Positions 28,206 to 32,166 of a stretch of 64,000 bases of DNA are shown piece after piece. Below the pieces are notes generated by a model, which was not told the origin of the DNA, searched no databases, and saw nothing but the letters and a program-made list of their open reading frames with translations. Within the stretch, counting starts at the first letter, position 1; each line of letters begins with the position of its first letter. Origin of the DNA: Tequatrovirus NIC06P2; sequence record OZ035760.1. The stretch is one strand, 5' to 3'. The position numbers and the translations under genes are program-made.

Positions 28206-28568
28206 TTAAAAGAATTTAAACTTTTTCTTTGACCTTTTATTAAATGCATCTTGTAGTTGCATTGTAATACATTTTTCTACATGAGGAGCTAACTCAGCTT
28301 TTCTTTCTTGGTCAAGAACAGCAAAGTCCATTACGACTTTTCCATCAACCCAATCTAATTTTGTCACATACACAATGTGTGTAGAACCATCTTCTAGTTT
28401 AATGACAATCTCCTGGATAACATTTTCCATAGCGGATTTAATTATCTTAAGAGACTCATTAAAAAGACGTTCTTTTCTTTCTTCTTCCCCCTCCGAAGAG
28501 GGGGATTCATCGATAATTTCTAGATCTAAATCTAAATCATCTTTATTCATTAAATTCTTCCATATCAC
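28206..28568 (-). CDS. 40: head vertex assembly chaperone gp40-like
   Basis: 120 aa; between uvsX and 41 as in T4. Confidence 0.7.
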   Translation of the reverse strand: MIWKNLMNKDDLDLDLEIIDESPSSEGEEERKERLFNESLKIIKSAMENVIQEIVIKLEDGSTHIVYVTKLDWVDGKVVMDFAVLDQERKAELAPHVEKCITMQLQDAFNKRSKKKFKFF

Positions 28569-29724
28569 TTAACTGTTCGAGGTCAGTTTCTAAATCAGCA
28601 GCTGATTTACTTTTACTTTCTGGAGATTTAAATTTTTCAACCTTTGAGTTAATCAATTCATCAACTTCAGCTTCAACAATTTCATTACTATCAATAGCAC
28701 CTAACTGATAAGCACGTTTAATAGCATCTCGGAATGGTTGATGCTTAAATAAAGGACCCCAGAATGTAGTGCAGTTGGTATCTTTTGCACGCCAAGATTT
28801 TTCTTCGCGAATCATCTCACCGGTTTCTTCATCAAGAAATTCACGGGCATACCAGCCATTTTTAGGTTTTACTACAAATCCTAATTCTAGAGCCATATCT
28901 AACAATCCAGAATAAGGATCGATACCACCGTCAAATTTAACATCAATAAAGAATTTACTTTTTTCTTTAACGGTACGAGATTTTTCTACATTTAGAACAA
29001 ATTGATACCCCTGAAGATCAGAACCATCTTTAATTTGACGTTTACCGATAATGAATACAGTATCAGCCGAATACATTACGCCTGTACCGCCTGTCATCAC
29101 GGTTTTACTAAACATTTCAATTGTTTCAATTGTATGGTTAACCGCAACGCACGGAATATTTTTAATGCTAAAATAAGGAGTAACAATACGGAATAATGAC
29201 TTCAGTGATTTAGCACGAGTCATATCTGCCACAGATTTTTCATTCAAGGCATCTTCCGTTTCTTTCTTAGAAGCCATATTACCGATTGAGTCGATGAATA
29301 CAATAACCTTTTCACCACGCTCAATAGTTTCAAGCTGATTCACCATATCAATTTTCAGCTGTTCAACTGATTGGATTGGCGTATGAATTACTCGTTCCGG
29401 GTCAACACCCATAGACTTAAGATAAGCCGGAGTGATACCAAACTCTGAGTCATAGAACAAACAGATAGCATCAGGATACTTATTCAAATAAGCTGCTACC
29501 ATTGTCAGTGACATATTAGATTTAAAATGTTTAGAAGGCCCTGCGAAAATAGTTAAACCAGACTGCATACCACCATCAATCGCACCGCTAATTGCAATAT
29601 TAAGCATTGGAATTTTTGTACGAATTACATCCTTTTCATTAAAGAATTTAGATGTAGTCAGTTCAGCAGTCATTTTAGAAGTGGAAGCTTTAATCAAACG
29701 GGATTTTAAATCTGCAATAGACAT
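28543..29724 (-). CDS. uvsX: UvsX recombinase (RecA-like)
   Basis: 393 aa vs 391 in T4; RecA-fold Walker A GPSKHFKS. Confidence 0.95.
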   Translation of the reverse strand: MSIADLKSRLIKASTSKMTAELTTSKFFNEKDVIRTKIPMLNIAISGAIDGGMQSGLTIFAGPSKHFKSNMSLTMVAAYLNKYPDAICLFYDSEFGITPAYLKSMGVDPERVIHTPIQSVEQLKIDMVNQLETIERGEKVIVFIDSIGNMASKKETEDALNEKSVADMTRAKSLKSLFRIVTPYFSIKNIPCVAVNHTIETIEMFSKTVMTGGTGVMYSADTVFIIGKRQIKDGSDLQGYQFVLNVEKSRTVKEKSKFFIDVKFDGGIDPYSGLLDMALELGFVVKPKNGWYAREFLDEETGEMIREEKSWRAKDTNCTTFWGPLFKHQPFRDAIKRAYQLGAIDSNEIVEAEVDELINSKVEKFKSPESKSKSAADLETDLEQLSDMEEFNE

Positions 29725-29801
29725 TCATTTTTTCCATAGGCATCATTATATTTTCCTCACTGGTTAAAGATAGAGTAATTATAACACAATAAATTTAGGC
29801 A

Positions 29802-30644
29802 TTAATCAACTGCTATTGGATGAATAGCATTAAACTTATGAAATGCTTCTGATTTTTCTTTACGAGAAACACACATGCGAAGAACCTTTAATGGCTCGTC
29901 TTCTTCACCCAACGATTTTCGTTTTTCAATATTAGAAGTTTTCCAACGAGCTTGCTCTGGAAACTCTCTATTGATTTGCTCAAGCGCTCTATTATGTTTA
30001 GAATTACTGCGAATTGAACTGCACCCGCCAGGAGCTTGTGCTTTTCCAGATACAACCAGATATTTGAACAAGGCCAAATGCGGATAACCTTGATTAATTA
30101 AATTGAGAAATGCATACATATCTTCGCATAAATCAATTTTTCCATACCCAATTTGTTCTGTGGTAAGTTTTCCGAGGTCATACCATGTATTCGTGAATCC
30201 GTATGAATTTTCACGATAATTACCCCAAGATGAAGTAATTTTAAAAATTGGTAGACGAGCATGACCGTGATAATACCCGCAATCCATGGCATCTTCAACG
30301 TATTGAATCAATTCATAGAACTGTTCACGAGTTAATTGATTAATTTTATCTACACATCGGCGATCATCTCTTTTTCGCATTGAACTCATACGAATAGTAG
30401 TATCATCGTCAATCATCCAGATTCGTTGACCTGCATACATATCAGTAATTGCTTTACGAGTACCGGCAATTCCGTTTACATCATCAGGAATAGTTACAAT
30501 TTTAGCTTTAGACCCATAGGCATCATAATAAGCTTTTTCTTCATGTTCACGTACTACGATATGAGGTTCATAATCAGTCGGAAACATATCAAGGGCAGAA
30601 ACTGCCCCTACACGTTGATAGCTCGGAATTACGAATTGAATCAT
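29802..30644 (-). CDS. GT-A fold glycosyltransferase, probably beta-glucosyl-HMC-alpha-glucosyltransferase of T2/T6 type
   Basis: 280 aa; VIPSYQR N-terminal motif and DDD (DxD) motif at IWMIDDDT; occupies the T4 beta-gt locus. Confidence 0.6.
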   Translation of the reverse strand: MIQFVIPSYQRVGAVSALDMFPTDYEPHIVVREHEEKAYYDAYGSKAKIVTIPDDVNGIAGTRKAITDMYAGQRIWMIDDDTTIRMSSMRKRDDRRCVDKINQLTREQFYELIQYVEDAMDCGYYHGHARLPIFKITSSWGNYRENSYGFTNTWYDLGKLTTEQIGYGKIDLCEDMYAFLNLINQGYPHLALFKYLVVSGKAQAPGGCSSIRSNSKHNRALEQINREFPEQARWKTSNIEKRKSLGEEDEPLKVLRMCVSRKEKSEAFHKFNAIHPIAVD

Positions 30645-31282
30645 TTAAGTGCCTTACATTTGTCAAAATGGTATCTTGTCATATTTGGCCCACGTCCTTT
30701 TAGTCCGCAATGCGGACATATTTTTTCTATCAAATTATGAGGTTTTCCTTTACGATTTTTAGACATCGTTTCTTTAATTATTTTAGCTTTTTCTACGCCA
30801 AAAATTTCTTCATAAGTTTTACCAGAATTTTCCTTGGCTCGATTTATAATTCCATATGCCTGCTCATTTTTACCATACATTGGATTACCTTCGCCTTTCA
30901 TTCTTTTAGAATGATCAGGACGCTTGATTCCACGAAAGGCATTTCCGCACTTATATCTTTCTTCTGGAGATAGTTTTTTACCGTACATTCCATTTAATTT
31001 GCCTGGAAAACTTCCTCCCCATGCTTCATTCTTTAAATTATATGAATCCGGACAATTAGCAGCATCTAAACAAGTTAAAATAATTTCTTCAACCTGTCTA
31101 AACATTGGTCCTTCATATAATATTTCTTTATTAAAGAATTTTATTCCATATTTCTTTTTAGCATGTTGCCAAACTACACCCGAACCATCATAATTCGGGT
31201 TGTGACCATCATGACTTCCTATATACCACTTTTTAGTTTTAGGATGTTTATACTTATAAACATGTGGCACATTTACTTCCAT
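30641..31282 (-). CDS. GIY-YIG homing endonuclease (Seg-like)
   Basis: VYKYKHPKTKKWYIGSHDG GIY-YIG motif; C-terminal zinc finger CPHCGLKGRGPNMTRYHFDKC; start overlaps stop of gene 42, stop overlaps start of glycosyltransferase. Confidence 0.7.
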   Translation of the reverse strand: MEVNVPHVYKYKHPKTKKWYIGSHDGHNPNYDGSGVVWQHAKKKYGIKFFNKEILYEGPMFRQVEEIILTCLDAANCPDSYNLKNEAWGGSFPGKLNGMYGKKLSPEERYKCGNAFRGIKRPDHSKRMKGEGNPMYGKNEQAYGIINRAKENSGKTYEEIFGVEKAKIIKETMSKNRKGKPHNLIEKICPHCGLKGRGPNMTRYHFDKCKALK

Positions 31283-32013
31283 TTTCCAGTATAATCCTTT
31301 TTAGCAATATGAGTCTCACCGGTGTTCCACCAATGGTCAACTAAATAAAACTGATTTTCGTACACATGAAGACTTCCAACGTTCCATATAATAGAACCTG
31401 CTTTATATTGCCGCGATGGGTCGCCTGCATTCAAATCAGATACTAATTTATATAGTACGTATTTTTGCCAAGCATAATCATTACGATAGCCTGCCCAGCA
31501 ATCATTGCTTCTCATGCTAACAACCGCATTGACTTTCTTATCACGAATCAGGTACTGTACTGTATTAGTACACATGAAATCTGACATGCCATCTTTATTG
31601 TAGTCAAACTGCATAGATGGACGAGTATAAATCATGATACCACGTCGAGAATCAGGATTTTGACCAAGTTCAGCTAAACACATATCATACTGGGCATAGT
31701 TATCTTCTGACCAGATAGCCCAACCATAATTTGAGTTAATTTCGCCTTTAGAAGATGCTACCTGTTGCCAAATCTTCGGTGTTTCACCCGGAATATCTTT
31801 AACAAACAGACTTTGAGACTTGTACCATTCAAGTTCACGCTGAATGTATTCATCATTAAGAGCGCCAAAAATAAACGGTTCATCTGCTACAAATGATGCG
31901 CCAATAATTTCAATAGTTTTAACACCAGTTTTATCAACTACGAAATCTTTTTCCTTTAATGCAGTTCCCAAATAAAAACGGATTTCTTCAACTGTCATAG
32001 AGTCATTAATCAT
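31273..32013 (-). CDS. 42: dCMP hydroxymethylase
   Basis: 246 aa as T4 gp42; thymidylate-synthase-like fold. Confidence 0.92.
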   Translation of the reverse strand: MINDSMTVEEIRFYLGTALKEKDFVVDKTGVKTIEIIGASFVADEPFIFGALNDEYIQRELEWYKSQSLFVKDIPGETPKIWQQVASSKGEINSNYGWAIWSEDNYAQYDMCLAELGQNPDSRRGIMIYTRPSMQFDYNKDGMSDFMCTNTVQYLIRDKKVNAVVSMRSNDCWAGYRNDYAWQKYVLYKLVSDLNAGDPSRQYKAGSIIWNVGSLHVYENQFYLVDHWWNTGETHIAKKDYTGKWK

Positions 32014-32166
32014 TTAAACCTCAATTGATGCATTCATATTTAAATTGTAACAGTAATAAACCCCACCCTATGATAAGAGTTGGAATCATAGCAGGAACTG
32101 TTACGCTATAGTATATACTTATTATAACCATCAAGATTAAAAGCAACACTGCTATAATTTTGCTTT

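Follow-up and report, generated by a model that had tools for sequence, protein, structure and literature searches.

The gene described here, which we call seg, encodes a protein of 213 amino acids (aa) and is wedged between gene 42, the gene for dCMP hydroxymethylase, and a glucosyltransferase gene on the minus strand of Tequatrovirus NIC06P2 (sequence record OZ035760.1). It lies in a stretch of 64,000 nucleotides (nt) that is referred to below as the window. The protein is almost certainly a Seg-type homing endonuclease. The findings as a whole are best explained, and in this we have good confidence, by a free-standing Seg-type enzyme that would spread by intronless homing through a cut in gene 42 of phages that lack it. 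The open reading frame (ORF) is listed exactly where an initial annotation of this DNA had placed it. In GenBank the gene is variously labelled as a hypothetical protein, a site-specific intron-like DNA endonuclease, a putative homing endonuclease, SegD, segE-like or segC-like. It is new and uncharacterised, and an ordinary member of a well-known kind.

Family assignment of the seg protein

The seg protein matches PHROG 314, 'homing endonuclease', with an E value of 1.8e-31. A protein database search returned 70 homologues, 48 of which were aligned and used for conservation, a Pfam family scan and a structure model. Y20, G22, N82, C189, C192, R203, H205, F206 and C209 are invariant across the alignment, Y9 (at least 90%) and a Y31-x-GSG motif are nearly invariant, and E64/E65 are kept in most homologues. 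The initial annotation had named GIY-YIG motifs and a C-terminal zinc finger, and both are present and conserved in the 48 homologues: V-Y9-K and Y20-I-G22 have the spacing of GIY and YIG motifs (11 residues), and the zinc ligands are C189, C192, H205 and C209. The NUMOD-like repeats that it also named stood in part. NUMOD3 is matched by 30 of the 48 relatives (Pfam, E<=0.01), whereas in the protein itself this family is the only Pfam match and scores 18 bits at aa 125-138, below the cut-off of 20.4. At the same threshold SegE_GIY-YIG (PF19835) was found in 15 relatives and GIY-YIG (PF01541) in eight. The protein scores 21.4 bits with TIGR01453, which has a cut-off of 56 bits, and phmmer against the sequences of the PDB gave a chance match only (E 0.92).

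The AlphaFold model built from the homologue alignment has a mean predicted local distance difference test score of 87.5 and consists of a beta-beta-alpha-beta-alpha N-terminal domain, a helical linker, and a C-terminal beta-hairpin and helix. Its three best Foldseek matches are all I-TevI (probability 0.99-1.00). The family profile aligns with T4 SegA in hhalign (98.8% probability, E 5e-17), and T4 SegC is the closest T4 protein by BLASTP (35% identity over 147 aa, E 4e-14). The PHROG match, the profiles of the relatives, the model with its Foldseek matches, and the similarity to SegA and SegC thus identify the protein as a Seg-family GIY-YIG enzyme. The fold proposed from the motifs is borne out by structure (I-TevI) and by profile (SegA), with Pfam silent on the protein alone.

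No Pfam model matches the C-terminal zinc-finger module, and its fold could not be named from Foldseek, which gave only weak matches to CTCF zinc fingers (probability <=0.21). A nearly identical CPHC...NMTRYHFD(N/K)C module is found at the C-termini of many viral-contig proteins at different loci. Its carriers, with NUMOD3 linkers, include HNH enzymes (locus L028, 2692-3198; locus L091, 2407-3078) and a GIY-YIG enzyme (locus L044, 2584-3129). The conservation of the module across enzymes at different loci suggests that it is probably not what sets target specificity.

Insertion site and distribution

A comparative alignment of the gene 42/glucosyltransferase region, the check proposed with the initial annotation, shows a 632-nt insertion in the window and a precise empty site in T2, T6, RB51, Paracelsus and pSs-1. 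The empty site reads GAG TGG AAA TGA TTC, where the stop codon of gene 42 overlaps the ATG of the glucosyltransferase gene. The downstream junction of the insertion is exact, and the same ATGA overlap is rebuilt there with the stop codon of seg. At the upstream end, gene 42 of the window finishes with ACT GGA AAA TGG AAG TAA, and the seg ATG takes its A from the end of AAA and its TG from the Trp codon TGG. The overlaps that had been noted at both ends of seg were thereby read directly from the sequence. An in-frame GTG at codon 5 of seg is not a credible alternative start: it is GCG in PE37 and FL33, and this lack of conservation leaves the ATG at 31282 as the start. An intron context is ruled out as well, since no Rfam family was found in 29700-32100 at E<=1 and the ORF runs at either end into the coding sequence of the adjoining gene.

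The site differs from that of segA, as the initial annotation had stated. T4T has the order uvsX-segA-beta-gt-42, with a spacer of 23 base pairs (bp) between gene 42 and beta-gt, and segA is inserted between uvsX and beta-gt and targets uvsX (PMC2988022).

The distribution of seg is sporadic. The glucosyltransferase gene is present in 478 phage records, and seg is found at >=95% identity in 77 of them. In most pairs of intact seg copies, more of the codon differences are synonymous than non-synonymous (up to 14:2), which argues that the gene is maintained by selection and, together with the 70 homologues, that it is a real gene and not a chance ORF. Six of the seven Tequatrovirus copies examined keep all the motif residues that were checked (Y9, Y20, G22, N82 and the zinc ligands), bar H191Y in PE37.

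Two altered copies were observed. In Escherichia phage Shinka (locus L013, 2001-2643), an extra A in an A-run near seg codon ~186 causes a frameshift with loss of the zinc finger, which reflects either decay of this copy or a sequencing error in the homopolymer. In the partial genome of Klebsiella phage vB_KpnM_GF (locus L005, 3002-3100), gene 42 breaks off at codon 214 and runs on, out of frame, into the final ~40 codons of a seg homologue; a deletion has taken away the rest of gene 42 and most of the seg homologue. Either an assembly error or a genuine repair scar close to patch B (described below) could explain this. SYGD1, which appeared from its annotation to carry a degenerate copy, has an intact ORF.

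Gene 42 as the constant neighbour of seg

In three genera and in metagenome contigs, every homologue in the range of 57-99% identity has a gene 42 homologue immediately upstream of it. Those of Klebsiella Jiaodavirus phages and of Yersinia phage MHG19 are 65-70% identical to seg and also have an overlapping start on the Trp codon, with a 13-nt overlap. On metagenomic viral contigs, seg homologues of 57-65% identity are situated just 3' of gene 42 homologues that are 49-62% identical to that of the window. The gene downstream varies, being the beta-glucosyl-HMC-alpha-glucosyltransferase gene in Tequatrovirus and Jiaodavirus and a T4-type beta-gt in Yersinia phage MHG19. Because gene 42 is constant and the downstream gene variable, and because a divergent gene 42 tract always accompanies seg, gene 42 is the likely target of cutting; judging from these patterns, the target is probably its 3' third.

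The divergent tract is confined to one side of the insertion. In Tequatrovirus, all 43 fixed differences between gene 42 of six phages with seg (seg+) and four without it (seg-) fall within nt 495-740. There are none in nt 1-494 and none in the 843-nt glucosyltransferase gene. Counts over the whole collection agree with this: across its final 165 nt, gene 42 matches the window at >=95% identity in 77 records, at 90-95% in eight, and at 80-90% in 408. The tract of the window is 78.5% identical to that of T2 and 66.7-69% identical to the tracts of Jiaodavirus and Yersinia phage MHG19, values that rule out its recent import from either of the latter.

The densest cluster of differences, which we call patch A, reads MRSND-CWAGY-RND in the window and MRSND-VVFGF-RND in T2, T6 and T4. 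The nt 481-540 bin holds 18 fixed differences, all at nt 495-528, and the codons for Arg168 and Ser169 are changed wholesale. As a member of the thymidylate synthase family, the enzyme would carry its phosphate-binding Arg in the patch A loop, which precedes Asp179 of T4 dCMP hydroxymethylase and would thus be part of the active-site region. Active-site regions are the kind of sequence favoured by homing endonucleases (PMC2988022). The 5' edge of the linked tract lies at patch A in two genera, and this sharp common edge suggests that the site is close to gene 42 nt 495-530, some 215-245 bp from the insertion point. Patch A itself is put forward tentatively as the cut site; a second cluster, patch B, is a further candidate (Table 1). 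Separately, at gene 42 nt 8-100 (31914-32006, minus strand), the window differs in a run from nearly all Tequatrovirus copies compared, for example with MINDS..RFYLGT in place of MISDS..RLHLGL, and T6 and BYEP01 share a few of these differences. The run has the look of a mosaic patch of its own, with no connection to seg.

The same pattern was found in a second genus. A query with the Jiaodavirus seg locus matched 157 records, 136 of them from Klebsiella phages (mostly Jiaodavirus), with full cover in 13. Gene 42 of seg+ and seg- Jiaodavirus phages is 98-99% identical over nt 1-501 and 68-72% identical from nt 502 to the end, and the two patches read CWAGY and QNQ in seg+ phages versus VVFGY and ERH in seg- phages. 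The breakpoint (~nt 500) is that of Tequatrovirus, although between the two genera the tracts share no more than 67-69% identity. The linked tract of Jiaodavirus thus reads as an independent replicate of the Tequatrovirus signature.

Six seg- phages were fetched as candidate recombinants (BYEP01, T4_ev151, PD112, CJY920, EO1 and ERS-1). ERS-1 (L101) was left out of the site table, as an indel shifted the extraction and made it unreadable. In the other five, the seg+-type tract spans both patches and gives way to the seg- type at no fewer than three distinct positions within nt 690-725. These five show that the tract can recombine, and they are what would be left by incomplete co-conversion or by secondary loss of seg. 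The reciprocal class, with seg and a T2-type tract, is not apparent, as far as counts alone can tell: 77 records have seg and 77 have the seg+-type tract.

Proposed mechanism and alternative explanations

Free-standing endonucleases cleave at a distance of hundreds of bp from the genes that encode them, with co-conversion of the flanks (PMC2988022). For seg we envisage co-transcription with gene 42 and the glucosyltransferase gene, and translation that would probably be low-level, by re-initiation at the gene 42 stop codon. When a seg+ phage and a seg- relative co-infect a cell, the enzyme would cleave both strands of gene 42 in the seg- genome, most likely in the active-site loop codons of a VVFG-type allele (gene 42 nt ~495-530), at the distance from the insertion point given above. 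Recombinational repair would then copy the resistant 3' tract of the donor's gene 42 and, usually, the 632-nt seg cassette into the recipient.

Several points weigh against this account. The base-by-base linkage check covered six seg+ and four seg- genomes of Tequatrovirus and three seg+ and two seg- genomes of Jiaodavirus, and the wider linkage consists of BLAST identity-band counts, not of matched record lists. The xWAG[YF] form of patch A appears widespread, occurring in the seg- Salmonella phage CGG4-1 and in all seg+ lineages, so that the tract could be an old allele kept by linkage and not one that evolved for immunity. xWAG[YF] may be ancestral and the VVFG form the one that is spreading; the direction of conversion is not readable from sequence alone. 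As for the enzyme, Pfam gave no GIY-YIG match for the protein itself at E<=1. The catalytic residues of I-TevI are Glu E75, Asn N90 and Arg R27, and no clear counterpart of Arg27 was identified, without residue-level superposition. As for expression, no late promoter consensus is present near seg, TATAAATA occurring twice in the whole window and neither time near the gene. There is also no significant hairpin at the seg start (minimum free energy -21.6 kcal/mol, z -1.07), which gives no support to the idea that such a regulatory structure conceals the start codon, as it does in I-TevI, segB and mobE. A literature search found no paper describing this seg gene.

A further consideration is that a second endonuclease gene uses the site. 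An HNH endonuclease gene of 174 aa is present at the identical gene 42/glucosyltransferase junction in three Jiaodavirus genomes (KpnM6E1, Merci and Phi_KR8). These genomes have VVFG-type gene 42 alleles with seven common substitutions, all within nt 645-672 (ERH to SRH), which are missing from the HNH-less KP01 and Mineola. Patch B co-varies with the HNH gene in Jiaodavirus, and the linked patch may be the target or the immunity site of the HNH enzyme. Since this gene is located at the identical junction and has linked substitutions of its own, the site may be contested by two endonucleases. In the fullest version of this idea, Seg and HNH each ride on their own resistant gene 42 3' third, and their conflict has maintained two old classes of active-site-loop alleles, xWAG[YF]/xNQ and VVFG[FY]/xRH, in at least two genera. 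We regard this version as possible and rather unlikely.

Another explanation is that seg is a passenger and that the VVFG/SRH-type 3' tract of gene 42 was spread by another agent, for example the HNH gene at the junction. The CWAGY tract would then be a residual ancestral state, and the breakpoint at ~nt 500 would mark the conversion tract of the other element. The distribution of xWAG[YF] fits this, as the form looks ancestral in occurring in CGG4-1 (a Gelderlandvirus), Yersinia phage MHG19 and all metagenomic loci. So does the VVFG type, which is the majority in both Tequatrovirus and Jiaodavirus, as well as the grouping of the 3' tract by type across genera (67-69% identity within a type versus ~60% across types) and the VVFG-type alleles of the three HNH-bearing genomes. 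Against it, the HNH-linked substitutions stop short of nt 500, and no endonuclease gene was present at the site in the VVFG-type Tequatrovirus genomes inspected. Copies of seg differ mostly synonymously, meaning that the gene is being maintained, and seg- phages with the seg+-type tract exist, whereas seg+ phages with the seg- type were not found. We consider a passenger role improbable.

It is more improbable still that seg is a decaying or domesticated relic and its tract the frozen remnant of one ancient import, shielded from recombination by low homology. A tract identity of 78.5% would indeed reduce recombination, Shinka and GF carry damaged copies (a frameshift without zinc finger and a C-terminal remnant, respectively), and the translation signals look weak by inspection, with no hairpin. 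Yet five of the six seg- phages fetched show recombination within the tract, and the breakpoint is found again in Jiaodavirus, where the tract has no more than 67-69% identity to that of the window. The checked motif residues are also largely intact, and synonymous changes dominate most pairwise comparisons. Least likely of all is that the protein cuts elsewhere (in the glucosyltransferase gene, uvsX or a distant locus) or attacks competitor or host DNA instead of homing: the target is unreadable from the protein sequence, T4 SegA at a neighbouring position cuts uvsX (PMC2988022), and the zinc-finger module, being nearly identical at unrelated loci, may not confer specificity, but the 843 nt of the glucosyltransferase gene hold no seg-linked difference and it is gene 42, not the downstream neighbour, that stays constant between genera.

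Expression of seg

A sigma-70 promoter scan found sites no more numerous than in shuffled sequence, and inspection by eye revealed only a poorly spaced Shine-Dalgarno sequence before seg. The overlapping start is conserved in three genera, which makes coupling of seg translation to that of gene 42, by termination and reinitiation, plausible. The metagenomic homologues, unlike seg, start 26-46 nt downstream of gene 42, and this counts against coupling. The nrdA/mobE overlap has likewise been discussed as possible translational coupling (PMC2988022). At the other end of the gene, inspection showed an AAGG at 30652-30655, within the 3' end of seg and seven nt before the glucosyltransferase ATG, which may replace a Shine-Dalgarno sequence supplied by the end of gene 42 at empty sites.

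Two further sequence features were observed nearby. The window has a T at gene 42 nt 562 (D188Y in gp42) that is unique among the 18 Tequatrovirus gene 42 sequences compared. It creates TATAAATT (31445-31452, minus strand), one base off the T4 late-promoter consensus, ~165 nt upstream of the seg start. Within codons 12-18 of the glucosyltransferase gene (30590-30610, minus strand) there is a terminator-like GC-rich hairpin of nine pairs with a T-rich run behind it. The feature is conserved whether or not a phage has seg, and it appears as a terminator in some GenBank annotations.

Features of the locus

The window is T2/T6-like, and its region 29700-32100 is 98% identical to BCH953P4, AV121, WL-3 and JK23, among others. 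All relevant genes are on the minus strand (Table 1), with small membrane-protein genes and then the DNA polymerase gene beyond gene 42. The glucosyltransferase has 280 aa and is of the beta-glucosyl-HMC-alpha-glucosyltransferase type of T2 and T6, not the beta-gt of T4.

Table 1. Features of the gene 42/seg/glucosyltransferase locus (window coordinates unless another genome is named).
Feature	Location	Strand	Evidence
seg-like ORF, free-standing GIY-YIG homing endonuclease gene (probable)	30641..31282	-	213 aa, ATG start; ORF list, PHROG 314, homologues, fold
GIY-YIG catalytic domain, ~aa 5-95	30998..31270	-	Y9, Y20-I-G22, Y31-x-GSG, E64/E65, N82
Basic helical linker with NUMOD3-like repeats, ~aa 96-180	30743..30997	-	Sub-cut-off NUMOD3; aligns with NUMOD3 region of T4 SegC
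C-terminal CCHC zinc-finger module (CPHCG...GPNMTRYHFDKC), aa 186-210	30653..30727	-	Invariant residues; beta-hairpin and helix in model
Insertion relative to the empty site, 632 nt	30645..31276	-	seg+/seg- alignment (T2, T6, RB51, Paracelsus, pSs-1)
Overlap of seg start and gene 42 end, 10 nt	31273..31282	-	Sequence; ATG made from AAA-TGG
Overlap of seg stop and beta-alpha-glucosyltransferase start, ATGA	30641..30644	-	Sequence; seg ends CTT AAA TGA
Gene 42, dCMP hydroxymethylase, presumed target gene	31273..32013	-	ORF list; Pfam Thymidylat_synt, E 8e-15; 91% identical to T4 gp42
seg-linked divergent gene 42 haplotype, nt 495-741, probable co-conversion tract	31273..31519	-	Fixed differences
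Patch A, gene 42 codons 168-176, candidate recognition/cleavage site, presumed resistant form	31486..31512	-	Fixed differences; 5' edge of tract
Patch B, gene 42 codons 217-221, second candidate site	31351..31363	-	VYENQ in window vs VYSRH in T2/T4/T6
beta-glucosyl-HMC-alpha-glucosyltransferase gene, downstream neighbour	29802..30644	-	ORF list; PHROG 842, E 3e-89; Pfam TAGT
uvsX	28543..29724	-	ORF list
HNH gene at the same junction	KpnM6E1 (L107) 1032-1556; Merci (L108) 826-1356; Phi_KR8 (L109) ~835-1353, unannotated		Overlapping stop/start codons

Significance and comparison with known systems

If the proposed mechanism is correct, T4-like phages have a homing endonuclease directed against dCMP hydroxymethylase, with which the hypermodification of their DNA begins. 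The mechanism would also account for the mosaicism of the last third of gene 42 in coliphages and Klebsiella phages that are nearly identical elsewhere. Natural material exists in the form of seg+ genomes, empty sites, seg- convertants and a competing HNH gene, and it would form a convenient system for studying co-conversion tract lengths and endonuclease competition. For those who sequence or engineer therapeutic T-even phages, the locus would be one that is open to overwriting in mixed infections. The understanding of how such elements work is unchanged by seg; what it adds is a testable target prediction and a clean natural signature of co-conversion.

Among known proteins, T4 SegC, whose gene is situated between genes 5.1 and 5.3/5.4, has the Y-x-GSG, KKYGI and YN-K motifs in common with the seg protein, and its NUMOD3 linker corresponds to the NUMOD3-like one of the seg protein. 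It differs in its locus and presumed target, and in ending in an I-TevI-type DNA-binding domain (PF20987, 23.8 bits, cut-off 27) where the seg protein ends in a CCHC finger. I-TevI, encoded in the group I intron of T4 td, is the best structural match of the catalytic domain and is likewise modular, with a catalytic domain, a linker (with NUMOD3 in I-TevI and NUMOD3-like repeats in the seg protein) and a zinc finger. In I-TevI the zinc finger is part of the linker and is followed by a helix-turn-helix, whereas that of the seg protein is C-terminal and of the CCHC type, and seg is not borne by an intron.

T4 SegA belongs to the same family and is also encoded by a free-standing gene in the block formed by gene 42, the glucosyltransferase gene and uvsX. 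Unlike seg, segA is located on the other side of the glucosyltransferase gene, and its product targets uvsX (PMC2988022) and has no C-terminal CCHC finger. No segA is present in the uvsX/glucosyltransferase spacer of the window. PD112 (locus L098, 1-14) lacks seg at the gene 42 junction and has an annotated homing endonuclease gene directly downstream of the glucosyltransferase gene, in the position of segA in T4.

The presence of Seg-type and HNH genes at the same Jiaodavirus junction resembles the situation of mobE and hef at nrdB, which has been reviewed as a case of different endonuclease classes at one gene (PMC2988022). The genes and enzymes are different, and the seg/HNH case is known from genome comparison alone. 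The mechanism proposed for seg is that of T4 SegF and SegG, which are described in a review as cutting inside an adjacent conserved gene, away from their own genes, with co-conversion of the intervening stretch (PMC2988022). For SegF and SegG, activity and biased inheritance were shown experimentally, whereas seg is known from its population signature; their targets are genes 56 and 32, and the presumed counterpart for seg is gene 42.

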